Virus record (IMG/VR): IMGVR_UViG_3300035208_004396
Source of the DNA: a virus
Lineage: Duplodnaviria; Caudoviricetes
Strand: one strand, 5' to 3'
DNA: 64,000 nucleotides
Below the pieces are notes generated by a model. It was not told where the DNA came from and ran no database searches. It was given only the letters and a program-made list of their open reading frames with translations. Below, in pieces: positions 2,182-63,130 of the stretch. Both the position numbers and the translations under genes were made by a program. Every line of letters begins with the position of its first letter. Positions within the stretch are counted from its first letter, which is position 1.

Positions 2182-3468
2182 ATGCTTATACTTAATAAAA
2201 ATCATGCTGGTCAGTCAGATAAGCTAAAGCTTTCCGGCATTACAGATCCGATCATTCGTGAAAATACACGCCAATTGATCGAAAACATTCAAGGTTATCA
2301 AACTAAATCGAAATTGAACGAAGATTTTGGTATTGGTTTGAATCCGCCTACTGGTTTGAATCAAGGTATTCCTACTGGTGGAATTGGCCATGGTGCTTAT
2401 GCTCCAGTAACTTGGGCAGTTGCTCGAAGGGCTTTCCCCGATCTTATCTCTAACGTATTGGTTGGTAACCACGTTATGAAGACACCGGCAGAACAGATTT
2501 TCGCACTTCGTAACATTTATTTAACTAATGATAAGACGAAGATGGTTGAAGCTGCATGGCGTGCCGTTGGTAAGTTCTCTGGTTTTACTGGTTCTCAACC
2601 CGGTCGTGAAGGTCCAGTTGATTCTGGTACTGCCGCTGCTGGTACGGAGAATCCTGAACACTGGAAACTTGGCGGCGATCCTGCTAAGTTCGAAAAGATG
2701 CCAGAACTTGGTATCAACATGATTTCTCAGGTCGTTGTGGCCCAGAAACGTCAGGTTGGTGCTTCTATCAGTACTGATGCTCTTGAGGATTTGAATTCCC
2801 AACATAGTATTGATGGTTTACAACATCTCACTCGTTTGTTACAATATGAGTTAAGTGCGGAAATGGATCGTGAAACTATTTCTCATTGTAAAGCTCATTG
2901 TATTCCTCAGATTATCAATAAGTCCGATACGACTTTAGCTGATAACACGGGATGGGTCGGTAGAAGTTCTATGGAACGTTTCTCTTGGATCAGAACTTTG
3001 ATCATGAGAAAGGCTAACGAAATTGGTACTGCTACTCGTATTAGTGCTGCTAACGTAATGGTGGTTTCACCTGATGTTGCTACAGTATTACAAGCTGGTA
3101 ACAGCCAATATTTCACTGCTTTCAACGGAACGGTTGATGCTTTGAAAACCACGGCAGAAATTGGTACCTTAAATGGTAACATTCGGTGCTTCGTGGATAG
3201 ATATCAGGGTGGTGAACATGCCAATGGCACAGAAGATACCGGAGAAGTTCTTCTAGCTTATAAGGGTAGTGCAAACGATGACGCTGGTGTTATCTTCTGT
3301 CCTTATATCATGGACGTTGTGCAAACTGCTACTGATCCTAACGACTTCTCACCTAGGGTTGCTGTAAAGGCTCGTTATGCTTATGCAGATAACATTCTCG
3401 GTTCAGAAAACTATTATCGGTTATTGAAGTTCAACAAGATCTTCGATGACGCTAACCTTGTGTTCTAA
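2182..3468 (+). CDS. gp23: Major capsid protein (T4 gp23 family)
   Basis: RRAFPDLIS..LVG..VM..P...IFALR, AEMDRE, YKGS..DAGVIFCPY, DPNDFSPRVAVKARY motifs; LNE maturation site near residue 45. Confidence 0.95.
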   Translation: MLILNKNHAGQSDKLKLSGITDPIIRENTRQLIENIQGYQTKSKLNEDFGIGLNPPTGLNQGIPTGGIGHGAYAPVTWAVARRAFPDLISNVLVGNHVMKTPAEQIFALRNIYLTNDKTKMVEAAWRAVGKFSGFTGSQPGREGPVDSGTAAAGTENPEHWKLGGDPAKFEKMPELGINMISQVVVAQKRQVGASISTDALEDLNSQHSIDGLQHLTRLLQYELSAEMDRETISHCKAHCIPQIINKSDTTLADNTGWVGRSSMERFSWIRTLIMRKANEIGTATRISAANVMVVSPDVATVLQAGNSQYFTAFNGTVDALKTTAEIGTLNGNIRCFVDRYQGGEHANGTEDTGEVLLAYKGSANDDAGVIFCPYIMDVVQTATDPNDFSPRVAVKARYAYADNILGSENYYRLLKFNKIFDDANLVF

Positions 3469-6080: not shown

Positions 6081-6860
6081 ATGAATTACTTAATAGTATT
6101 GACAAAATGTTATAATGTAAAAGATTTCATGACATTTTACGATTATCACATTAGATTATTTGATAAGATTATAGTGTATGATAACGAATCAAGTGTTAAA
6201 ATACCGGTAAAATCCGAAAAGATAATTGGTTTTCCAGATCAATATTCTTTATATAATGAAATTATGAAAAATTTCCCATTTAAAAATGACGATTTAGTAT
6301 GTTTTCTTGATGATGATGAGTATTTATATACAGATTTTGATAAAAATGGGTTTAATGATGCCGTTTACGGCGTTTTAGATCGGTATGGAGCAAATATTTT
6401 ACATATACCCGAGATACTTATCAGTACTAAAGTTTTGCTCTCTAAACGCCATGAAACGCTGCCCATTACTTCGAGATATATCAGATTGGATAAAGGTAAT
6501 ACATGTAAGTGTATTATTCGTTATAAAAAAACACATTATGATTTTAATTTCAAAAATATTATGATATCTGACACAATAGGTCATATACCGAGTATAAATG
6601 GAGTTAAATATAGTGTTGGTATGTCTACATTTCCCGATATATCTTATAGCAGTTATGCTAAAGTGGATTTAGATGCAAAGATAAGGTTATATCATTATCA
6701 CATTAAATCGGAAGCGGATTGGTTGATTAAATTGAACAGGGGTAGTGCTGCTACCAAGATACCTTGGTATAGTAATGATATAAGAATGAATTATGCTTTT
6801 TCTGGATATGATACTATTGATAATAGTGTCTATTATAAAGTTAAAGAAAATCTATATTGA
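6081..6860 (+). CDS. GT-A fold glycosyltransferase (GT2/GT92-like)
   Basis: YH...FDKIIVYDNES, FLDDDEYL (DxD), KCI, LYHY..KS..DW..K..RG motifs. Confidence 0.8.
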   Translation: MNYLIVLTKCYNVKDFMTFYDYHIRLFDKIIVYDNESSVKIPVKSEKIIGFPDQYSLYNEIMKNFPFKNDDLVCFLDDDEYLYTDFDKNGFNDAVYGVLDRYGANILHIPEILISTKVLLSKRHETLPITSRYIRLDKGNTCKCIIRYKKTHYDFNFKNIMISDTIGHIPSINGVKYSVGMSTFPDISYSSYAKVDLDAKIRLYHYHIKSEADWLIKLNRGSAATKIPWYSNDIRMNYAFSGYDTIDNSVYYKVKENLY

Positions 6861-14313: not shown

Positions 14314-15507
14314 TTAATTTTCCGGAACTTCTTTTTCTACTTCTATAGGTTCTGGTGTAGATGTATCTTGTTTCTTAGCTTCACGTCTAGCTTTTCTCGC
14401 AGCCCGTTCAGCCTTTTCAGCTTCACTGGCAATATTTTCATCTTCCAGTGTAGGTTCAGCTTTAACAACGTCTCTAGCCAAAGCATCGACATCATTATGA
14501 TAATTGTATTTACACTTGATGAAATCTGAAAATTTAGTATTAGTAAGCAAAGGTTTAACGAATTCTTCTGAGTAAGTTTCTTCTTCCTTGAAAGTTTTCG
14601 TTATTTCACCAGTAGTCTTATCCAAATCGATATCTACTCGATAATATGAACCCGGCTTATCTTTATTAACTACTCCGCTTTCTACTAAGTCATCTAGAAG
14701 GCCAAACCATCTATCAACACCGCGATCTACCATTATTCGGTACTTAACTTTACTGTTTTCGACCGCTTCACGTCCTTTCTTGATCACGGCATTACAGATT
14801 TTGCCCAATACTGTCTTAGTTTCATCATCCTTTACTTTAGCAGCACTATTTACCAAAACGATAGCATCTGAATTGAAATAGAGTTTTGATCCACCCGGAA
14901 TGTTTTTGGGGTCACCATACATTTGCAACGAAGCATAAGTGTGATTGATTACTAATACTGTAAAACCACAAGCATGCATGATGTTAGCTAACTCATTTTT
15001 GAATTTGCTTGTAGAACCCATATCGACTGTACTTGAGCCCTCTTCAGCTTTAGCCATCACCTGGGTCGATACAAGATCGCCCCAAGAATCAAGAAGAACG
15101 AACACATTTTCACGATCCTTCTTCTCTACATCTTTGGCGATATTGGTGAAAATCTCTTTAAGATCGGATATGATTTGAGTATCAAAAATACCTACGTCAT
15201 CCATATTTATCCCCAAAGCATTAGCTATTTTATAATCGAAAGCTCGTTCAGTATCAATTACGAAGCAATCCATTCCCGTACGAAATGCTTCTGCTAGGAA
15301 ATGTAACCCGATGATGGATTTGCCCATCGTACTATCAGCAGCAATTTCGCTGATAGCTCCTCTTTTAATGCCACTATTCATAATTCTACCCGAGAATAGA
15401 ATATCTATAGCTGGAATTGTGGATGAAATGAATGTATCTGGCTTCTTAATAGAGATCATGTCAGCCAGCTTCTTATTACGCATGATGCTCTTAACTAAAT
15501 TAGACAT
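14314..15507 (-). CDS. uvsX: RecA-like recombinase
   Basis: Walker A ADSTMGKS, IDTERA, LDSWG, INHTY, PGG..L.F. Confidence 0.92.
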   Translation of the reverse strand: MSNLVKSIMRNKKLADMISIKKPDTFISSTIPAIDILFSGRIMNSGIKRGAISEIAADSTMGKSIIGLHFLAEAFRTGMDCFVIDTERAFDYKIANALGINMDDVGIFDTQIISDLKEIFTNIAKDVEKKDRENVFVLLDSWGDLVSTQVMAKAEEGSSTVDMGSTSKFKNELANIMHACGFTVLVINHTYASLQMYGDPKNIPGGSKLYFNSDAIVLVNSAAKVKDDETKTVLGKICNAVIKKGREAVENSKVKYRIMVDRGVDRWFGLLDDLVESGVVNKDKPGSYYRVDIDLDKTTGEITKTFKEEETYSEEFVKPLLTNTKFSDFIKCKYNYHNDVDALARDVVKAEPTLEDENIASEAEKAERAARKARREAKKQDTSTPEPIEVEKEVPEN

Positions 15508-15634
15508 ATTTTACCTTTTTTAATAATAGATTCTTTGAAAATCTGAATCTAGAACGTGATTATATTTGAATATAGTTATATATTTTACTTATTTTCGTTG
15601 AAAATGACCATTTTAGTCACTTCATATATACAAT

Positions 15635-15790
15635 ATGAACGAAGAATTTTCTAATGGTGTAGTTAATACTGGTTTATCGACTGGAGTACCAACTGGCGGT
15701 ATAGGTAAGGGAGCTACGTGTCATCCCGTACCACATTTTCGTGATTTTTATAAGCGAAAGAAGAAAAAGGTAAAAAATGAAAATAAATAA
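15635..15790 (+). CDS. Unannotated 51-aa protein resembling the mature N-terminus of the major capsid protein, with a basic tail
   Basis: MNEEFSNGVVNTGLSTGVPTGGIGKGATCHPVPHFRDFYKRKKKKVKNENK; ATATATA-N4-ATG upstream. Confidence 0.75.
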   Translation: MNEEFSNGVVNTGLSTGVPTGGIGKGATCHPVPHFRDFYKRKKKKVKNENK

Positions 15791-16586
15791 CATTTATATT
15801 GATTTAGAAGGTGTTTTAGCTGATTTTTTATGTCAAGCCCATACTTACAATATGGTTAACAGCAAAGGTATAGCAGACTGGAATTCTATACGTGTTGCCG
15901 GTGCTTCATTTTGGCCTACTATGCCCTGGACAAAAAATGGAAAAAGCCTTTTTGATATTTTAGTTCATTTTTGCATAGAAAACAACATCAATTTATGCAT
16001 ATTAGCTATTGCTAATGATGATAGCATGAAATCTGGGAAAACAGATTGGATTAAGAACAATTTGCACATTAACTTGTTAAACGTTCATTTCGTTAAAACT
16101 GGTTTTGATAAATCTAGATTTGCCAATCCTTCTTCCGTATTAATAGATGATTTTTATAAAAATGTTGCTTATTTCAGAGCTAGACAAGGTTATGCGATAT
16201 TATATAAAAATAATCCAGATGACATTATAGTTCAACTCAATAATCTAGTTGCAGGAATAATTCCGGAAAAATATATCGCGGAAGCTATACATGACAAAAA
16301 AGTGATCCGAGATGGTAAAAAAGAGGTTAAAAAAGTAACCGATAGAAAAGGTTATCGTGTAGAATATGATAAAGTTACTAATCTACCTAAAGAAGTAAAA
16401 ATAACTACTAAAGAGAAATTAGCTAGGAAACAGGGTCAAAAAAGTGGCAGTTTGAAACGTTATGGTCAAATTAATGTTATGCAACAGAGACGAGAACGTT
16501 CATTTAAGATACGAGATATGCAAGGTCTGGCACATTACTCTGATAATCATGGTAAAATTATATTACCCAAATTAAAGGACGATTAA
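15777..16586 (+). CDS. HAD 5'(3')-nucleotidase-like domain fused to a basic C-terminal domain
   Basis: IYIDLEGVLADF, K..W, K..FA....VLIDD...N. Confidence 0.7.
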   Translation: MKINNIYIDLEGVLADFLCQAHTYNMVNSKGIADWNSIRVAGASFWPTMPWTKNGKSLFDILVHFCIENNINLCILAIANDDSMKSGKTDWIKNNLHINLLNVHFVKTGFDKSRFANPSSVLIDDFYKNVAYFRARQGYAILYKNNPDDIIVQLNNLVAGIIPEKYIAEAIHDKKVIRDGKKEVKKVTDRKGYRVEYDKVTNLPKEVKITTKEKLARKQGQKSGSLKRYGQINVMQQRRERSFKIRDMQGLAHYSDNHGKIILPKLKDD

Positions 16587-16589
16587 ATC

Positions 16590-17165
16590 ATGGCCGGTTT
16601 GACTAATTTTTTCAACATGAAATATAAATCTAATGCTAAATTTCTAGTTTATATAAAAATTGGCACCGGTGATAGATTGTTATTAACTACAGTAAAAGAT
16701 GTTACACTTCCTAAACTAACATTAGGTACATTAGAACTAAAATATGGTAATGTTAATGAAACTGTAATGATTCCGAAATATGGTACTGAAGATTTACAAT
16801 TAGACATCATGGAAGATAGTCATTTTTCTATATATTCTATGATAGTTGCATTAAAACATGAAAATTATGCCCCGTATGATTATGTTAATGCAGGTTATAT
16901 TGGTAGGGATGATGTTAATATAGAAGTTGATGAATTGTCTATGGATAATTCTAGAATTCTTATTAAACATATATTTAATAATTGTAAATTATCAAATAAT
17001 GATGCCTTAGTTTTGGATTATCAGAATACCGGCCCTACATTTTATAATATTTCCTTTGCATATCAAAAATATGTAATTCAATACACAACGGATAATACTA
17101 TGATAAACGATCCATCTTTTCAAAAAAGTATAGTGGATGCTAAACCTATACTAAGTAAATCATGA
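16590..17165 (+). CDS. Tail tube-like protein (gp19/gp54 fold)
   Basis: V.LPK......, L.L...ED, C.......LDY......F.ISF.Y pattern. Confidence 0.6.
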   Translation: MAGLTNFFNMKYKSNAKFLVYIKIGTGDRLLLTTVKDVTLPKLTLGTLELKYGNVNETVMIPKYGTEDLQLDIMEDSHFSIYSMIVALKHENYAPYDYVNAGYIGRDDVNIEVDELSMDNSRILIKHIFNNCKLSNNDALVLDYQNTGPTFYNISFAYQKYVIQYTTDNTMINDPSFQKSIVDAKPILSKS

Positions 17166-17608
17166 ATGATTTTTTCCCCGCAACATTGATTACAAATGGT
17201 CATTTTTATGGATTTCAATACAATCCAGCTAATATAGTGCCGAATTATGATGCTTTTCCTCTGATTTATTGTGTTGGGCCATCTTTGACCAATATAAACA
17301 ATATTCGTGGTTTGAATTTACATCATATTCCTAGAACTCAAAGATTTGAATTTTTAAAGAAAATGGAAAAGGAGTACAATTTCACGAATAAATCTCGTTG
17401 TGTTTTGACAGATGACCAATTAAATAGATTATTACCAGGTGTTATAGTAGCAATACGTGAATATAGTAGAAAAAGAATGTGTCAAGTATTCGAAATTTAT
17501 AATAAATCTATGCCCAAATTCATATATTCGGATGGAAATATAAGGCAATGTATTCCCGATCGCGAAGTTATAGATTATTTTGCTAAAAGCAATAATGCTC
17601 ACGTATGA
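17162..17608 (+). CDS. gp2: DNA end protector protein (gp2-like)
   Basis: F.Y.P....YD.FPL.......GLNLH.IP...R signature. Confidence 0.75.
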   Translation: MNDFFPATLITNGHFYGFQYNPANIVPNYDAFPLIYCVGPSLTNINNIRGLNLHHIPRTQRFEFLKKMEKEYNFTNKSRCVLTDDQLNRLLPGVIVAIREYSRKRMCQVFEIYNKSMPKFIYSDGNIRQCIPDREVIDYFAKSNNAHV

Positions 17609-30607: not shown

Positions 30608-30691
30608 GCCCAGGTGGTGGAATTGGTAGACACTAGGGACTTAAAATCCCTTGGTCGTAAGATCGTGAGGGTTCGATTCCCTCTTTGGGCA
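30608..30691 (+). tRNA. tRNA-Leu(TAA)
   Basis: Full cloverleaf with long variable arm and GTTCGATTC T loop. Confidence 0.95.
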
Positions 30692-30694
30692 CTA

Positions 30695-30765
30695 TAAGGC
30701 GTGGTTTAGCTGCTACGTCTTAGAAATGGAAAACGTTTGAGCTAACAAACGTTTTAGTTTCCATT
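30695..30765 (+). ncRNA. Kissing-loop two-hairpin RNA, copy 1
   Basis: Loops TTAGCT and AGCTAA are exact reverse complements; GAA junction. Confidence 0.7.
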
Positions 30766-30769
30766 AGCT

Positions 30770-30844
30770 ATATTATTCGTATAATTCTGGCAGTACAATC
30801 GCCTATCGGCAGATTGGTATGGGTTCGAATCCCATATAATATAT
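30770..30844 (+). tRNA. tRNA-like RNA with all-A/U acceptor stem and aberrant anticodon arm
   Basis: D arm GTAT/GTAC, T arm ATGGG-TTCGAAT-CCCAT; anticodon arm irregular. Confidence 0.6.
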
Positions 30845-31013
30845 CTTTTAGTTGAAATAAAATAGAGATTAAAAATCCTTGCCATAAACTTCCTAGATCT
30901 ATAAGGCAAAAGATAAAACGATACGTGAATGAATGTGTAATAAGCATAATCTAGTATATTCACATTATATTGTTTAATCCCCCCGTCAAGTTTTACTGGG
31001 TTCTTGACATTTT

Positions 31014-31088
31014 GGCCGAGTAACCGAATTTGGCATAGGTACTTGTTTCAAACACAAGATTTTGTGGGTTCGATTCCCGCCTTGGCCA
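31014..31088 (+). tRNA. tRNA-Leu(CAA), short variable loop
   Basis: CTTGT-TTCAAAC-ACAAG anticodon arm; 5-nt variable loop. Confidence 0.9.
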
Positions 31089-31092
31089 CTAT

Positions 31093-31164
31093 GCCGTTAT
31101 ATGTCAATGGTTAGACGAAAGGACTTTTAATCCTTGGATCCGAGTTCGAGTCTCGGTAACGGCA
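31093..31164 (+). tRNA. tRNA-Lys(TTT)
   Basis: Full cloverleaf. Confidence 0.95.
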
Positions 31165-31447
31165 CTAATTTTCAGGAAAAAAGATAAAAAACCTCGACTG
31201 GATGTAAGTAAAGAGGGGTTTGACCTTTTCAGATTTTAGACGTAAAATCGATAACAAAAGGTTCTTTTTATACTTAATATAATTTAAGATCTCGATTAAG
31301 TTGAAATAAAATAGAGATTACCACCTAAATTTTCTTAGAAGTTTAGGAAAGGCTGAGTGGTTGAGCACTGACCGAGTACCACTGAAATAATAAAAAATGC
31401 AGTTCGGTCATCATTTTATAGGATTGATAACTATTATGGATAAAACA

Positions 31448-31690
31448 ATGAATAAAAATGAATTTGATGAATTATTCAAGGTTCCTGCTAATATGGATTC
31501 AGATTCATATGAGGACTGGATAAGGAAAAAGTGCATCGATCTTCGAAACGGTATTGACTTTATGATTGAGAATATTGAATATTTGGAGGGTGATGCTGGC
31601 GAATTTCCGTCCGAAAGAGAATCTGTATACGATAAATGTTATTCTAGATATCAGGAGTTATTCGATAATTCAACCGAAAATGTAGATTGA
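31448..31690 (+). CDS. Small acidic hypothetical protein
   Basis: ORF within the tRNA region; start 31436 or 31448. Confidence 0.55.
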   Translation: MNKNEFDELFKVPANMDSDSYEDWIRKKCIDLRNGIDFMIENIEYLEGDAGEFPSERESVYDKCYSRYQELFDNSTENVD

Positions 31691-31692
31691 CT

Positions 31693-31902
31693 ATGAAATA
31701 CAATGGCATAGAACTAGTCGATGTAAGTCAGAAGGAATCTATTACAAATGATGATCCCATAGAAATGATCTGTTGGAATGATGGAGATATTCCAGTCAGG
31801 TGTATAGTTTATGCAATAGTTCCGGGAAGTAGATATCCTGTTATTACTGATTGTAATAGATGCATAGTATTTCAACATTGTGCATATAATAACGTTTTTT
31901 AA
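31693..31902 (+). CDS. Small hypothetical protein
   Basis: Follows the previous ORF; P.EM..W.D....HCA pattern. Confidence 0.55.
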   Translation: MKYNGIELVDVSQKESITNDDPIEMICWNDGDIPVRCIVYAIVPGSRYPVITDCNRCIVFQHCAYNNVF

Positions 31903-31970
31903 AGTTACAGGTAAAAAGAATCACTCCACTATAATATGTCGGTTTCTTGAGAAGGTTCTTCCGACATTTA

Positions 31971-32046
31971 GGCCAGGTAGCCGAATTTGGTATAGGCGTG
32001 GCGCCTAGGACGCCATTTTTTGAGGGTTCGAATCCCTTCTTGGCCA
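31971..32046 (+). tRNA. tRNA-Leu(TAG), short variable loop, C33
   Basis: TGGCG-CCTAGGA-CGCCA. Confidence 0.88.
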
Positions 32047-32080
32047 CTTTTAAGCTGGAATAGTTTGATAAATATAAAAA

Positions 32081-32164
32081 GGAGATGTGTGCGAGTTGGT
32101 TTATGCAGGTAATCCTGAAAATTACTGGTCTTATGGCCCGTAGGTTCGAATCCTACCATCTCCT
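32081..32164 (+). tRNA. tRNA-Ser(TGA), C33
   Basis: GTAAT-CCTGAAA-ATTAC; long variable arm. Confidence 0.9.
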
Positions 32165-32168
32165 CTAT

Positions 32169-32250
32169 GGAAGATTACGCTAAAGGTAAGCGGAAGCTTT
32201 GCTAAAGCTTTGAGGCAAAACTCTTATAGGTTCGAGTCCTATATCTTCCT
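32169..32250 (+). tRNA. tRNA-Ser(GCT)
   Basis: Full cloverleaf with long variable arm. Confidence 0.92.
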
Positions 32251-32253
32251 TAC

Positions 32254-32325
32254 TGCCTAGTCGTATAAAAGCAAGTATAATGGACTTTGAATCCATTGGA
32301 CGGGGAGCGTTACCCTGCTAGGCAA
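32254..32325 (+). tRNA. tRNA-Gln(TTG), variant T loop
   Basis: ATGGA-CTTTGAA-TCCAT; T loop AGCGTTA; U1-A72. Confidence 0.85.
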
Positions 32326-32343
32326 GATTTTTAAAAATAATAG

Positions 32344-32414
32344 TTGAGAAATAAGAATTTCTTTTCTATATTATGATCATTGGAAACGAGATTTCCAATC
32401 GCTTATTGAATATT
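32344..32414 (+). promoter_or_regulatory. Sigma70 promoter with boxB/boxA-like leader (copy 3)
   Basis: TTGAGA-17-TATATT, then ATGATCATTGGAAA-CGAGA-TTTCCAATCG and TTATTGAAT; near-duplicate of copy 1. Confidence 0.78.
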
Positions 32415-32415
32415 A

Positions 32416-32486
32416 CGGAATATGGTGTAATGGTAACACAATAGCTTTGCAAGTTATTTTCCCGAGTTCGAATCTCGGTATCTACA
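32416..32486 (+). tRNA. tRNA-Ala(TGC) with poorly paired acceptor stem (possible pseudo-tRNA)
   Basis: D, anticodon and T arms intact; acceptor CGGAATA/TATCTAC has 3 mismatches. Confidence 0.6.
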
Positions 32487-32490
32487 CTAT

Positions 32491-32572
32491 GCTAGCGATG
32501 CGGAATTGGTACCGCCCCTGACTGTAGATCAGGCGCCTTCGGGCTATGTGGGTTCGAATCCTTCCGCTAGCA
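32491..32572 (+). tRNA. tRNA-Tyr(GTA)
   Basis: Cloverleaf with GCC-TTCG-GGC variable arm. Confidence 0.92.
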
Positions 32573-32575
32573 CTA

Positions 32576-32641
32576 TGAGATTGAATTTGACGGTTCTATC
32601 TCAGAAATGGTTATTATTTTCGTCAAAAAATAATGACCGTT
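32576..32641 (+). ncRNA. Kissing-loop two-hairpin RNA, copy 2
   Basis: Loops TTGACG and CGTCAA are exact reverse complements; same GAA-ATGG junction as copy 1. Confidence 0.7.
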
Positions 32642-32654
32642 ATTATAGTAAAGT

Positions 32655-32727
32655 GACTTCTATAGTATAATTGGTATTACGTGCCACCGTTGCGATGGAG
32701 ATATGTGTTCGAACCACATTAGAAGTC
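32655..32727 (+). tRNA. tRNA-His-like body (G-1:C73) with aberrant anticodon arm
   Basis: 8-bp acceptor GACTTCTA/TAGAAGTC; anticodon region CCA-CCGTTGCGA-TGG has no GTG. Confidence 0.6.
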
Positions 32728-32858
32728 CTAATTTTATTATCTTTTTGGGCATGCTTAGCTGATAACAACATGAAAATCTATCTGATCAAATAATATCTGA
32801 ATAAGCATCGGCGAAAATATGCAACGGGTAGAATAATAAGTTATTTTTTAGGAGAAGC

Positions 32859-32929
32859 TTATGAAATGGCAGCTACCATTTAAAGACTATTAAAGTCTGC
32901 AAAGGTTCGAATTCTTTCTTGCACACTTA
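32859..32929 (+). ncRNA. Second 23S H43/H44-like RNA, with a tRNA T-arm in place of the H44 loop
   Basis: AGCT..GCAGCTACCATTTAAAGA..GC-[AAAGGTTCGAATTCTTT]-GCACAC. Confidence 0.6.
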
Positions 32930-33030
32930 TATAAAAATCCCATACTTAAATGGGCTATATTGATACAATTGGCAGTATAGATAGCGAGAGTTGGGACTTA
33001 GCTCTAAAATAAGAGGTACCAGATTTTTAT

Positions 33031-33103
33031 CGCGGGTGAGTGAAACGGTTTACACATTTGGTTCATACCCAAAAAATAGTCGGTTCGACCCCGACACCCG
33101 CTA
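33031..33103 (+). tRNA. tRNA-Met(CAT), initiator-like
   Basis: C1:U72 mismatch, CGCGGG 5' end; only two G-C pairs next to the anticodon loop. Confidence 0.88.
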
Positions 33104-33115
33104 TTTAAAGTTTAT

Positions 33116-33187
33116 TCCAATGTAGTTCAGAGGTAGAATAAGCGATTGTTAATCGTGAGGTCGGAGGTTCGAATCCTTCCATTGGAG
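33116..33187 (+). tRNA. tRNA-Asn(GTT)
   Basis: Full cloverleaf. Confidence 0.92.
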
Positions 33188-33195
33188 TTTTTTAT

Positions 33196-33291
33196 ACATC
33201 ATCATGCTGCAACGGGTCTTATAAGCCTGTACCCAACAACAAATATGCGCGGCTGGTCTTGGGGCACCGGGTTCGATTCCTGGATGATGTA
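33196..33291 (+). tRNA. D-armless tRNA-like RNA, anticodon TAT (Ile)
   Basis: Acceptor ACATCAT/ATGATGT, anticodon arm CGGGT-CTTATAA-GCCTG, T arm intact, 37-nt variable region. Confidence 0.75.
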
Positions 33292-33315
33292 CTAAGTTTA
33301 GTTATAATCCATTTT

Positions 33316-33388
33316 GACCCCTTGGCGAAATAAGGAACGCGACTGTCTGCAAAACAGTTATGATATGGTGCAATTCCATAAGAGGTCT
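33316..33388 (+). tRNA. tRNA-Cys(GCA)
   Basis: ACTGT-CTGCAAA-ACAGT; U73; variant T loop TGCAATT. Confidence 0.88.
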
Positions 33389-33408
33389 TTTTAATATATA
33401 ATCCATTA

Positions 33409-33482
33409 CGGTCTGTAGCTCAGTACAGTAGAGTACTGGTTTTGGGAACCAGATGTCGTGAGAGCGAAGCTCACCAGACCGA
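33409..33482 (+). tRNA. tRNA-Pro(TGG), variant T loop
   Basis: CTGGT-TTTGGGA-ACCAG; T loop AGCGAAG. Confidence 0.88.
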
Positions 33483-33562
33483 TAATAAATAGAGCTTCTA
33501 CTTTTAAGTTTTGAAGAGCACTTCGAAAAACTCTTTAGGTTGATTAACCTTTGAACGATCAC

Positions 33563-33605
33563 TGTTAGGAATGGTTTACCGGAGTTCGATTCTTCGACCT
33601 AGCAA
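33563..33605 (+). ncRNA. tRNA minihelix-like RNA (acceptor + D-loop-like linker + T arm)
   Basis: TGTTAGG/CCTAGCA, AATGGT linker, CGGAG-TTCGATT-CTTCG. Confidence 0.45.
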
Positions 33606-33840
33606 TATTAAGAATAAAAGCGCAAAATGTGATAAAATCAAGTTTATCATTTCCGATATGTTTAATGATTTCGGCGTTTTTATTTTTTTTAACTATATTA
33701 AGTCCCTTATATAGTGTCCAAGAACAACACTATATTAAAAGTCTGCCGAAAAAGCCTAATGATTATTACTTGGTAATCTAAGGCGATCTGATACACCACG
33801 AGGCTAGATTTAGAGGTATATACGGTGAGATCAGAATTAT

Positions 33841-33915
33841 ACTCGATTAGCTCAAGTTGGTCTAGAGCAGCTGCGTCAGGCAGCAGGGTCATTGGTTCAA
33901 ATCCAATATCGAGTA
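33841..33915 (+). tRNA. tRNA-like RNA with shortened anticodon loop centred on TCA
   Basis: Perfect acceptor, D and T arms; GCTGC-GTCAG-GCAGC. Confidence 0.7.
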
Positions 33916-33920
33916 CTTTT

Positions 33921-34000
33921 GCTCTCGTAGCCACATCGGTCTTCTAAACCGCTAAGTGTAAATGGAGCTGTAAATACAGGTTCGATCCCTGTCGAGAGTA
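33921..34000 (+). tRNA. D-armless tRNA-like RNA, anticodon TCT (Arg)
   Basis: Acceptor GCTCTCG/CGAGAGT, CGGT-CTTCTAA-ACCG, T arm intact, long variable region. Confidence 0.75.
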
Positions 34001-34048
34001 CTAAAAGATATTTATATTTCTTAAATTTAACAAAAACAAAGGAATCTA

Positions 34049-34504
34049 ATGAAAAAGTTAATCGTTTTGTGTTTCATCCTTGTTATTACGGCATGCAGTA
34101 ATAATTATTCTAATGGTGAACGAGTTGGTCTTGTAACTCAATTCTCAAAAACAGGTCTGATTTGGGATAGTTGGGAAGGACAGTTGAATATGACACAGAC
34201 TGGTATGAATAGTTCGGCTGAGTTCGATTTCAGTTTGGATAACGATATGCCAGAATTGCAAGATAAGCTTATCCCGATACTCGATTCAGCAGCTCATTAT
34301 GGTTGGAAAGTATCGTTAAGTTATACTGAAGTAACTGGATATAATTGGTTGAATAATAGAGGTTGTACAAATCATTTTATTAAAAATGTAGTTGTTTTGG
34401 ATAAGAATCCTATGCATAATGTATTTAATAAGGATACTTTGAATAAAAGTGATACCATTTATGTAGGACATCGTGATACCATTTATGTAGTAATAAAGAA
34501 GTGA
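34049..34504 (+). CDS. Phage lipoprotein
   Basis: Signal peptide with lipobox ITAC; YS.G.R.G....FS..G....WEG.L motif. Confidence 0.75.
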   Translation: MKKLIVLCFILVITACSNNYSNGERVGLVTQFSKTGLIWDSWEGQLNMTQTGMNSSAEFDFSLDNDMPELQDKLIPILDSAAHYGWKVSLSYTEVTGYNWLNNRGCTNHFIKNVVVLDKNPMHNVFNKDTLNKSDTIYVGHRDTIYVVIKK

Positions 34505-34510
34505 GTTTTA

Positions 34511-34581
34511 GCCCTTATAGTTCAATGGTAAAACACCAGATCTGTAATCTGGCTTTCTTGGTTCGAGTCCAGGTTTGGGCG
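34511..34581 (+). tRNA. tRNA-Thr(TGT), C33, two U-U acceptor mismatches
   Basis: CCAGA-TCTGTAA-TCTGG. Confidence 0.75.
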
Positions 34582-61049: not shown

Positions 61050-62627
61050 ATGGCTACAATAGCAGAAACATTAGCTAATATCAGTAAACGAGATAGTAAT
61101 TCGAATGATAGTAATGTTATGTTTAGATTATATAAAAAAACAGAAGAAATTGCTAAAATACTGTTAATAAATCAAAAAAATAGCAAAACCGAATTCAAAG
61201 AACTCATCGCGATATTGAAGAAAAATGCTAACATAGAGGCTAAAAAAGATAAAGCTAAACCTAAAAAAGAAACTCATACATTGTCCGATTTAGTACCGGC
61301 TATGTCTAAAGTATTAGATGCTTTAACTGTATTCATTGCTAATTGGTCTAATCCGATAGTAGTAGGTGTAGCTTTAGGCTTAGGTGTGGTTGTAGCACTT
61401 GTACCTATACTGTTAATAGTTTATCTGTTAATCATGAATTTCATCGATAATCTACCTGGATTATTAAACAATGTGTTAACGGGCTTAATCGATGCATTAG
61501 GTAATATAATAAGTAAATTCGCTGTTGTTTTAGTAAATACATTCAAAAATGTATTAAGAGATATATTTGGTCCTAATATAGATAAAGTTTTCGATATGAT
61601 AGACAATACATTATTAGCTTTAGCAACTACAGTAACTACTATTTTAACAACAATATCGAATGTTATCACTGGCATATTTAAGACCTTCGAAGGAAAAACA
61701 TTAGGTCAAATTCTAGGTGGTCTAATAAGTGATATGATAACTGGTATTGTTGATGGCATAATAGATGGAATGACTGATCTATTACAAAAATTAGACAGCA
61801 TTATGCCTTTAATAAGCAAAGTTCTAGATGAATTAGCGAATACTATTGCAAATACTATAGGTGGATTCTTCGATAATTTGGGTAAACATGAACCATTTAT
61901 CACAATTGTATCAGTTTTGAAAAGCATGGGCACAGGAATAGACAAAGTATCGGCTGGAATATATGAAATGACTGGAGCTATCAAATCATATTTCGAAGCT
62001 AAGGGAAAAGAAGCTATTGCTACCGCTGGTACAGCAGTTGGTAAAGCTGGCACTTCTATCGGTACGGGAATATCAGATTTAGTTTCTTATTTAAAAAATG
62101 ATAAAAAAGAAAACCCGACAGAAGAAAATGATATGCCAGTCCGGGTTATCAATTTATCCGAATTAACCGGCGATATTTCATTAATACCTACTAAATTAGA
62201 TGAAAATGGTGCTTCTATAAATCACAGTCTAGGTATTTTAGCCTCTATAGCAAACAAGAATTTCAACATCATTCAAGATACTAATACCCAGTTCCATAAG
62301 ACTATATTAGATAGCATGACTAATATGCTAGAATATAGTAAACCAAAAACAACATCGGTAAATGATGTCGGAAATAGATTGGATACTGCATTATCGAATC
62401 TTTTAGGGCATAAAAACACAGTTAATGATACTACTACATCTACGAAAATGTTGAATACTGCTGATGTTAACAAAACTATGTCTGAAAATTTAATCGATAG
62501 CATTAATTCTATTAAAGATATTTCGGATAACATTTTACAATTATTAACTAAGACATTCAATGAAGGTGTAAACACTAAAACTATAACGGAATCCACATTG
62601 AATGGTTATACATTTCCGAGTAGATAA
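61050..62627 (+). CDS. Helical tape-measure/baseplate-hub-like protein with hydrophobic segment
   Basis: Amphipathic repeats, long hydrophobic stretch; ATATATA-N4-ATG. Confidence 0.45.
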   Translation: MATIAETLANISKRDSNSNDSNVMFRLYKKTEEIAKILLINQKNSKTEFKELIAILKKNANIEAKKDKAKPKKETHTLSDLVPAMSKVLDALTVFIANWSNPIVVGVALGLGVVVALVPILLIVYLLIMNFIDNLPGLLNNVLTGLIDALGNIISKFAVVLVNTFKNVLRDIFGPNIDKVFDMIDNTLLALATTVTTILTTISNVITGIFKTFEGKTLGQILGGLISDMITGIVDGIIDGMTDLLQKLDSIMPLISKVLDELANTIANTIGGFFDNLGKHEPFITIVSVLKSMGTGIDKVSAGIYEMTGAIKSYFEAKGKEAIATAGTAVGKAGTSIGTGISDLVSYLKNDKKENPTEENDMPVRVINLSELTGDISLIPTKLDENGASINHSLGILASIANKNFNIIQDTNTQFHKTILDSMTNMLEYSKPKTTSVNDVGNRLDTALSNLLGHKNTVNDTTTSTKMLNTADVNKTMSENLIDSINSIKDISDNILQLLTKTFNEGVNTKTITESTLNGYTFPSR

Positions 62628-63130
62628 TGAGTTCTGTTTTCAATAAGCTTTATTATCAAGGCGAATATGTCCCAGTAAATAAGGACAAATGTATAAATTG
62701 CACTAATTCTAAACTAAAAATACCGTTTTATCGTAGTTCATGGGAATTAAAATTCATGAGGTGGCTAGATAAAAGAATTGATGTTCTTGAATGGGGTTCA
62801 GAATGTCAAATGATAGATTATTATTCAGATCAAGACAATAAGATGCATACTTATTTTCCCGATTTCTATATGAAAGTAAAAGATAAAGATAATGAGATCG
62901 TTAAATATATGATCGAAGTAAAACCCAAATCTCAAAGTCCAAAGTTAGATGAAAATAACAATGTTAAATATCCAAGTTTACCTAAAAACAAAACTAATAA
63001 GAATTTATCACGATGGTCAGAAAAAACAGCTATTTTACATCGAAACAATGAAAAATGGGCAGCAGCAAAACATTATTGCTCTACCCATGCTATGATTTTC
63101 AAAGTATTAAATGAAGATGATCTATTTTGA
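62627..63130 (+). CDS. gp4: Head completion nuclease (gp4, TnsA-like)
   Basis: YRSSWE..FM..LD....W.SE, H.YFPDF, IEVKP..Q, N..KW.AA. Confidence 0.92.
   Translation: MSSVFNKLYYQGEYVPVNKDKCINCTNSKLKIPFYRSSWELKFMRWLDKRIDVLEWGSECQMIDYYSDQDNKMHTYFPDFYMKVKDKDNEIVKYMIEVKPKSQSPKLDENNNVKYPSLPKNKTNKNLSRWSEKTAILHRNNEKWAAAKHYCSTHAMIFKVLNEDDLF

Follow-up and report, generated by a model that had tools for sequence, protein, structure and literature searches.

The 64,000-nucleotide stretch of viral DNA analysed here, referred to as the window, carries at 15635–15790 (+) a 51-aa open reading frame (ORF) that is a real gene under purifying selection, and its product copies an N-terminal module of the phage's own major capsid protein (MCP). 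Judged by its sequence, the gene is the minimised member of a larger family, a relationship that the preliminary description of this DNA overlooked. The product may be a DNA-binding peptide of the head interior, targeted to the prohead and possibly processed by its protease, a tentative reading to which we give a probability of about 0.48. The phage itself has no cultured isolate, and its only records are metagenomes of landfill, groundwater and wastewater. We found no published description of a separate gene that consists of the MCP cleavage site and the N-fist, occurs once per genome and co-varies with the MCP.

The small gene and its surroundings

The gene runs from ATG to TAA, stop codon included, with no in-frame start further 5′, and is the minimal member of a family derived from the MCP N-terminus. 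Gene callers recognise it on public metagenome contigs, where the exact 51-aa protein and two variants are called genes on about 30 contigs. All of its parts lie on the + strand. The product opens with M-N-E (15635–15643), which aligns with P3–P1 (L-N-E) of the putative prohead-protease site of the MCP. Residues 4–29 (15644–15721) reproduce the ~26 residues with which the mature MCP begins, the equivalent of the T4 gp23* N-fist, as aligned by BLASTP and hhalign; this segment is called the arm below. Residues 30–39, HPVPHFRDFY (15722–15751), are a remnant of MCP residues ~101–113 (TP....FALRNIY) in the family alignment (A6) and in the hhalign comparison of A6 with the MCP alignment (A5). The lysine-rich tail, residues 40–51 (KRKKKKVKNENK, 15752–15787), corresponds to a basic run that is present in every family member. 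Compared with longer family members, the 51-aa ORF has lost the equivalent of MCP ~74–100 between the arm and HPVPHFRDFY. The FRDFY motif and the KRKKKK tail are both found where they had been described; overlooked was that FRDFY, by its alignment with LRNIY (MCP 109–113), is itself MCP-derived.

An ATATATA box and CAAT stand directly 5′ of the ATG (15624–15634, +), without a Shine-Dalgarno sequence, and the ATATATA-N4-ATG start reported earlier is confirmed, with ATATATA at 15624–30. The box, ATATATA/TATATACA, is a possible promoter or short-leader start, as at several other genes of the window. TATA(A/T)ATA-like boxes lie 3–6 nt before starts that lack a Shine-Dalgarno sequence at 6081(+), 6057(-), 10699(-), 14243(-), 20127(+) and 15635(+); AAGGAG is present at the scaffold, MCP and 110-aa genes. 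Such starts just after TATA-like boxes suggest short-leader or leaderless transcripts for part of the genome.

The gene is located between a divergent UvsX/RecA-like gene (14314–15507, -), at a distance of 127 nt, and a 269-codon gene (15777–16586, +), which overlaps it by 14 nt and encodes a 5′-3′ deoxyribonucleotidase-like protein (phrog_2643, E=4.6e-18). A tail-tube-fold protein (16590–17165, +; phrog_45, E=1.2e-6) and a T4 gp2-like DNA end protector (17162–17608, +; PF26869 on an identical product, alignment A3) follow. In the 269-aa protein the deoxyribonucleotidase-like N-terminal half is joined to a lysine/arginine-rich C-terminal extension of ~110 aa, which is absent in the 161–163-aa homologs of other lineages; relatives of this protein numbered none in IMG/VR and few elsewhere. 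Farther along the window, 13 tRNA genes are clustered at 30608–34581 (+). One of them (33841–33916), with anticodon TCA (SeC according to ARAGORN), may read UGA, although no ORF discussed here needs recoding. A TnsA-like endonuclease gene is found at 62627–63130.

Derivation from the major capsid protein

The MCP gene (2182–3468, +) directly follows the gene of a T4-type capsid assembly scaffolding protein (1117–2163, +; PF25623, E=1.4e-11; phrog_237). Its 428-aa product, from which the module was copied, is a gp23-family protein (PF07068, an assignment precomputed on a 99%-identical database cluster) and is less than 30% identical to the MCPs of cultured T4-like phages. MCP residues 45–76 (2314–2409, +) hold the putative cleavage site L-N-E(47)|D(48) and the N-fist-equivalent segment. 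Residues 1–27 of the small ORF are identical to MCP 45–72 at 16 of 28 positions (57%) with one gap, at E=1e-7 in a single BLASTP comparison, which rules out a chance match and upholds the earlier statement that the ORF copies the mature N-arm of the MCP. A profile of the small-ORF family, searched against 4,792 six-frame ORFs from the window and the collected loci, retrieved only family members and the window MCP (E=1.8e-7); a third copy of the motif in the window, beside the 51-aa ORF and the MCP, was not found by this six-frame search. The core V/I-P-T-G-G-I-G-K/H-G-A is written with different codons at 5 of its 7 identical residues, in agreement with the earlier remark that the shared G.PTGGIG.GA core uses mostly different synonymous codons. 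Over the anchored arm the same codon is used at 7 of the 15 identical residues.

At the level of profiles, hhalign aligned the family (A6) with the MCPs (A5) at 98.6% probability and E=1.2e-15 over 78 columns. Family positions 5–85 are matched with window MCP 27–116, and hence the family is a copy of the N-terminal quarter of the MCP. The copy takes in the last part of the propeptide, where the MCP reads ..LLENQ.. and the family ..ILEENG.., and then the x-x-Glu site, the ~26 residues behind it and the sequence up to the FALRNIY strand. In the window the minimal form comprises the equivalents of MCP ~45–73 and the remnant of ~101–113 (HPVPHFRDFY vs TPAEQIFALRNIY), with the middle deleted.

The glutamate of the site is found without exception in the family members and in the MCPs of the clade. 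At the position of M-N-E, relatives within the family carry T-N-E, I-L-E, L-D-E, L-N-E, V-N-E or M-D-E, and the clade MCPs all have [LIM]-x-E followed by DF (or ATF). T4 gp23 is matured at E65|A66 (PMC9546572). The distance from the site glutamate to RR-A-(I/F)-P in the clade MCP is 34 residues, equal to that from E65|A66 to R100-R101 in T4 gp23, and this equal spacing points to L-N-E47|D48 as the maturation site and to the copied segment as the equivalent of the T4 gp23* N-fist. The T4 N-fist is an N-terminal element of 25 residues that contacts four subunits in the mature shell, helps to lock the expanded shell and comes to lie at the exterior of the mature capsid (PMC9958956). Before expansion, T4 gp23 residues 66–105 have no ordered structure and are located within the shell, probably in contact with the scaffolding core (PMC9546572).

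A family in related phages

The preliminary description had made its claim depend on conservation in related phages. The gene is conserved, with homologs in three lineages (B, C and D) besides that of the window (A). The clade is common in samples from sewage, landfill, groundwater, and gut or rumen.

The lineage B homolog (P0005; 59 aa, 64% identical, E=9e-8) was the sole distant homolog detected by HMMER among 1.8 billion proteins. It lies on a 130-kb contig in a syntenic position, 5′ of a nucleotidase-like gene, a tube-like gene and gp2 and near UvsW, and the MCP of this contig (P0007) is 85% identical to that of the window. A homolog of the window's TnsA-like endonuclease gene occurs near the lineage B MCP, and an IS605 OrfB/TnpB (Cas12f-like) gene is inserted in the phage near the family gene (L017 14145–15368).

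The lineage C form, obtained by profile search, has 57 aa; it starts MIILE|DFGMGVG..., contains the run KRKRKRKHKR and ends ...PSFKEFLRK, and its ORF overlaps the start of a gp2-like gene. The lineage is abundant in sewage assemblies and is listed in ~330 contig-collection blocks, mostly from sewage. Within 10 kb of the family gene, the lineage C loci that were read contain no MCP gene. In loci L028–L043, genes for Cpn10, an IF1/eIF-1a-like protein and a ClpP-family protease are present within 5 kb 5′ of the family gene.

Lineage D was reached by searching whole IMG/VR records with related MCPs, 44–50% identical to the window MCP. Here the family is represented by forms of 95–215 aa in phage genomes of 290–424 kb, one per genome beside a single MCP. 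Four IMG/VR records have a completeness of 70% or more (98% or more in three), and each of them gave exactly two arm matches, the MCP and one ORF of 95–215 aa; the extra arm-bearing ORF was also found on four smaller IMG/VR fragments. Short Pfam Gp23 matches (model ~185–327) occur in ORFs of 77–225 aa at G006:C1 232984–233103, 149401–149739 and 148199–148426, and other MCP-fragment ORFs may thus exist in lineage D phages. A small Cys-rich ORF (CP.C...CCP..., ending F.KSSW.D) lies just 5′ of the family gene in lineages C and D (L046 801–1073, L020 19–240), with one ORF in between in the lineage D locus that was read; the window does not have it, and a functional partnership with the family gene is possible.

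The common architecture is an optional leader, x-x-E, the arm [DE]F..G[VI]...G...G[IV]P.GG.(G/C)(K/H)(G/A), an optional Cys/Pro/aromatic-rich middle, a P....aromatic motif, a Lys/Arg run and an optional variable C-terminal domain. The 51-aa ORF has x-x-E with the arm, the P....aromatic motif and the Lys/Arg run, and its genome encodes a gp23-family MCP. Basic stretches, of 5–12 consecutive Lys/Arg or Lys/Arg-rich, are found in all members (KRKKKKVK in the 51-aa ORF), and the mature product of the 51-aa ORF, like those of its relatives, is predicted to be basic and DNA-associating. The N-terminal module and the poly-Lys run are conserved and the C-terminal extensions are variable (A6), a pattern expected of a targeting module that carries cargo.

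Other searches returned little. Pfam, the Gp23 model included, gave no match for the 51-aa ORF and six longer members, and the family has no match in PHROGs. Neither the ORF nor its region matched any of 50,697 GenBank phages (tblastn, blastn), no confirmed relative emerged when IMG/VR and JGI metagenome contigs were scanned for patterns of the ORF or of alignment A2, and a word-based protein search with the 51-aa ORF returned its own cluster only. A 784-aa repeat protein (P0004) from the exhaustive search was rejected as repeat-driven, since its eight repeated stretches match only ORF residues 22–45. A family member is absent from the P0130 loci, from the differently arranged neighbourhood of a UvsX relative that is 51% identical (L006), and from the 4 kb around gp2 relatives of 33–39% identity.

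Selection and co-variation with the capsid protein

Protein-level selection on the small ORF, which the preliminary description had deduced from codon usage, is borne out by dN/dS values of 0.06–0.13. The lower value was obtained in the window's lineage (Nei-Gojobori), and 0.10–0.13 among distant family members. Of the 156 nt of the window's gene, 14 are different in one strain lineage, 11 of these changes being synonymous and 3 non-synonymous, and 10 of the 14 are at third codon positions; in the MCP-like codons 1–29 the strain lineages show 0 non-synonymous vs 6 synonymous changes. Between lineages A and B pS is 0.78, so that synonymous sites are saturated while the family persists. The one run recorded as RNA, a metatranscriptome, gave a single contig covering 16307–16531, outside the 51-aa ORF. 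The run with contigs over the 51-aa ORF is labelled RNA-Seq but is probably DNA.

The arm of the copy tracks the arm of the phage's own MCP. The comparison covers 25 anchored arm positions and amounts to about three independent events, scored by identity counts. For instance, the copies of lineages A and B are nearest to the A/B MCP arms, with 13–16 identities vs 9–12 to other MCPs, and GGIG is unique to the A/B copies and the A/B MCPs, the rest of the clade having GGDG. Similarly, the copy in the lineage D genome G014 is identical to its own MCP at 21 positions, vs 13–17 to others, and both have GADQ and KAV. Among the distinct other lineage D copies, GLDQ is common to the copy and its own MCP in 5 of 6, the exception being G006. 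The residues that copy and MCP have in common are encoded by the same codon in only 75 of 160 cases. Recent gene conversion is ruled out as the cause of the tracking by these differences at synonymous sites, and the match has been kept by selection. The simplest reading is that copy and MCP share a binding partner.

Proposed role

A capsid-associated peptide that contacts DNA is plausible, since it fits the poly-Lys run, the retained position of the protease site and the leader of the longer relatives. The gene would have originated when the 5′ part of the MCP gene was duplicated; its protein would have kept the protease-site residues, the ~25-residue N-fist segment and a remnant of the next core strand, and a poly-lysine tail would have been fused to these. 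In T4 the N-terminal region of gp23 is located within the unexpanded shell, on the side of the scaffolding core and the protease. The copy could make the same contacts as the N-terminus of the MCP and thereby co-assemble into the prohead. A gp21-type protease would trim it at x-x-Glu where a propeptide exists, namely in the longer relatives and perhaps at MIILE|DF in lineage C. The lysine run would bind packaged DNA, either for charge neutralisation or as a tether between DNA and shell. The 51-aa form would then be a stripped-down version, with a targeting module and a DNA-binding tail and no cargo domain.

At the N-terminus of the longer members stands a leader, MT.EEA.EILEENGY, and L-x-E comes next. 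This ~17-aa leader (M[TNS]L.EA..[IL]L..NGY) also heads 5–18 other ORFs in each of the 290–424-kb genomes (G001, G006, G007, G008; e.g. L153–L166). In 11 of the 12 ORFs read, the leader is followed by [LI]-x-E at residues 16–20 of the protein, where chance would give it in ~12% each, with the caveat that the last positions of the leader profile favour Glu. It looks like a shared capsid-targeting leader that marks out many putative internal head proteins. Capsid-targeting sequences (CTS) in T4 are short leaders removed by gp21 after entry into the core (PMC3012670, PMC5694885), and the T4 internal proteins conserve only this targeting part (PMC3012670). A Peptidase_S77 of the gp21 type exceeds the Pfam cut-off in each of three relatives with complete or near-complete genomes; it was not found in the 64-kb window, part of a genome of ~206 kb, or within 10 kb of the lineage B MCP.

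Position and promoter also bear on the role. The family gene is linked to gp2, the head-associated DNA-end protector, in lineages A–C and is unlinked in lineage D, and its neighbourhoods differ in lineages C and D. An exact TATAAATA, the T4 late-promoter consensus, lies 17–34 nt 5′ of the start in lineage B and at six lineage D loci, of which two belong to near-identical genomes; at the 51-aa ORF the exact sequence is absent.

Encapsidation, cleavage and DNA binding of the family are what we infer from sequence, and several findings count against the head-internal reading. In the 51-aa form the arm is preceded by M-N-E alone, without a propeptide, and a profile of the leader (A7) has no match in the window, so that leader-plus-LxE is known from lineage D relatives and not from the window's phage. 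Cleavage of the 51-aa form is doubtful, since the cut would remove no more than three residues and would have Met instead of Leu/Ile at P3; other members have T, I, L, V or M there (Thr in lineage B). The conserved module lies after the cleavage site, unlike in the T4 CTS, and would stay in the mature protein. By analogy, the final outside position of the T4 N-fist would fit a role on the shell surface as well as an internal one. A predicted complex of the 51-aa protein with two copies of MCP 77–428, run without controls, scored below the mark and counts neither for nor against this reading.

If the head-internal reading is true, a clade of large T4-like phages targets head proteins by means of the capsid protein's own N-terminal module, a mechanism unlike the T4 capsid-targeting sequence and one that offers a natural 25-residue tag for loading cargo into capsids. 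The leader with L/I-x-E, the arm and the poly-Lys run could serve as a signature to predict the internal head proteomes of uncultured large phages. The N-fist segment, conserved in two co-varying genes, marks an autonomous interaction part of gp23-type MCPs. Very short ORFs in phage regions that look intergenic can be core genes.

Alternative explanations

The main idea of the preliminary description was a shell accessory, that is, a free N-fist which after expansion fills sockets of the lattice left without an MCP N-terminus, at the portal vertex or the pentons, and whose basic tail contacts DNA or acidic patches of the shell. We regard this as unlikely, though as the main rival of the head-internal reading. 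The 25-residue N-fist of T4 contacts four subunits and helps to lock the shell (PMC9958956), the copied segment is the best-conserved part both of the MCP N-terminus and of the family, and the co-variation of the arm with its own MCP is what docking on MCP subunits would predict. Moreover, G001, G006 and G007, the three complete or near-complete relatives, have no second full-length paralog of the gp23/gp24 type that could act at the vertices. A poly-Lys tail and variable C-terminal domains would nevertheless be odd for an external cement protein, and the leader-plus-LxE of the longer members points to entry into the prohead core. The same doubt attaches to a trans-acting form of the idea, in which a spare N-fist co-evolving with the MCP would plug empty sockets and its poly-Lys run would anchor the packaged genome to the shell. 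If true, this would represent a new class of capsid-completion factor made from a recycled piece of capsid protein.

Alternatively, the product might never be packaged and might regulate assembly as a non-structural mimic of the MCP N-terminus, binding the scaffold, the prohead protease or a partner of the chaperone/EF-Tu type and so timing or limiting the assembly or cleavage of the MCP. The module includes both the protease site and the part that faces the scaffold (PMC9546572), the 51-aa form starts exactly at P3 of the site, and the gene resides amid genes of replication and nucleotide metabolism, outside the head module. A regulator of this kind has, however, no obvious role for a family-wide poly-Lys run, and the late-promoter-like TATAAATA 5′ of the relatives, the linkage to the virion protein gp2 and the capsid-targeting-like leader of the longer members all argue against it. 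It is quite improbable.

A decoy that soaks up a host sensor of the MCP N-terminal region, in Gol/Lit-like or other capsid-sensing immunity, is very unlikely. To our knowledge the Gol region is the only well-described N-terminal trigger in T4 gp23. N-terminal regions of the T4 MCP, through the Gol peptide of gp23, are known to trigger immunity (PMC3014915), longer family members cover the Gol-equivalent stretch, and tracking of the phage's own MCP would suit a decoy. However, this stretch of ~29 residues, VRR.(I/F)P.L....(V/C)GVQP... (window MCP ~74–100), is missing from the 51-aa ORF and likewise from the forms of lineages B and C, the lineage D equivalent is without the conserved LVGVQP core of the MCP, and the invariant part of the family is the arm and not the Gol region. 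The decoy would also leave the poly-Lys run and the leader unexplained, and a gene that every lineage keeps at one copy per genome resembles a core gene rather than an accessory anti-defence gene. The suggestion of a capsid-immunity decoy in the preliminary description has therefore lost ground, the Gol-equivalent being the exact part deleted from the 51-aa form and poorly conserved in the longer ones (PMC3014915).

Finally, a decaying fragment of a duplicated MCP gene, or a translated uORF that regulates the downstream nucleotidase gene, might be proposed for an ORF that is short, lacks a Shine-Dalgarno sequence, extends 14 nt into the next gene and matches nothing in Pfam or PHROGs, but a dead relic is excluded by the selection data, and the dN/dS values, the persistence of the family at saturated synonymous sites and the different gene neighbourhoods in lineages C and D largely refute both forms.

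Comparison with known systems

Small basic internal head proteins and protease-processed head proteins are already known from T4 (the internal proteins), P1 (DarA/Hdf) and phiKZ/SPN3US. T4 IPI, IPII, IPIII and Alt, with their N-terminal CTS, are the nearest in general design. On the head-internal reading, the family would share with them small size, basic character, entry into the prohead core and retention with the DNA, in addition to a conserved targeting part with variable cargo; the leader of ~17–20 aa in the longer members ends in L/I-x-E, as does a T4 CTS (PMC3012670, PMC5694885). Nevertheless, the family has no sequence similarity to the T4 CTS, its module is a copy of the MCP cleavage site and N-fist that would be kept after cleavage, and the 51-aa form has no leader.

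P1 DarA and Hdf are head-internal proteins that bind the inner surface of the capsid and touch DNA through a positive face; DarA is processed by the prohead protease, and Hdf is named a partial homolog of DarA (PMC12810830). They differ from the family in that they are unrelated in sequence, much larger, not derived from an MCP and have an anti-restriction function. The inner-head (ejection) proteins of phiKZ and SPN3US resemble the larger set of leader-bearing ORFs, being the many head proteins of large phages, with shared N-terminal propeptides and x-x-Glu cuts (PMC5694885, PMC10052503), and their propeptides are analogous to the leader family of the 290–424-kb relatives. Their protease, however, is S80 (S77 in the clade), their motifs are A/S/G-x-E, and no MCP-derived module has been described in them.

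The T4 vertex protein gp24 is likewise a separate gene that arose from duplication of the MCP gene. As a paralog it spans the full length of gp23, and the protease that cuts gp23 also acts on it at an N-terminal x-x-Glu (PMC9546572). In contrast, gp24 has the whole HK97-type fold, whereas the family retains only MCP ~27–116 with poly-Lys; the 51-aa ORF, without a Pfam Gp23 match and with homology confined to MCP ~27–116, is not itself a gp23-family MCP (PF07068). The closest counterpart of the copied segment is the N-fist/N-arm of T4 gp23* (aa 66–105). In the window's phage the segment occurs as a free 51-aa protein, and the sequence identity of the T4 element to the arm of the clade is negligible, yet the two occupy the same position and have the same 34-residue spacing from the site glutamate to RR-A-(I/F)-P.
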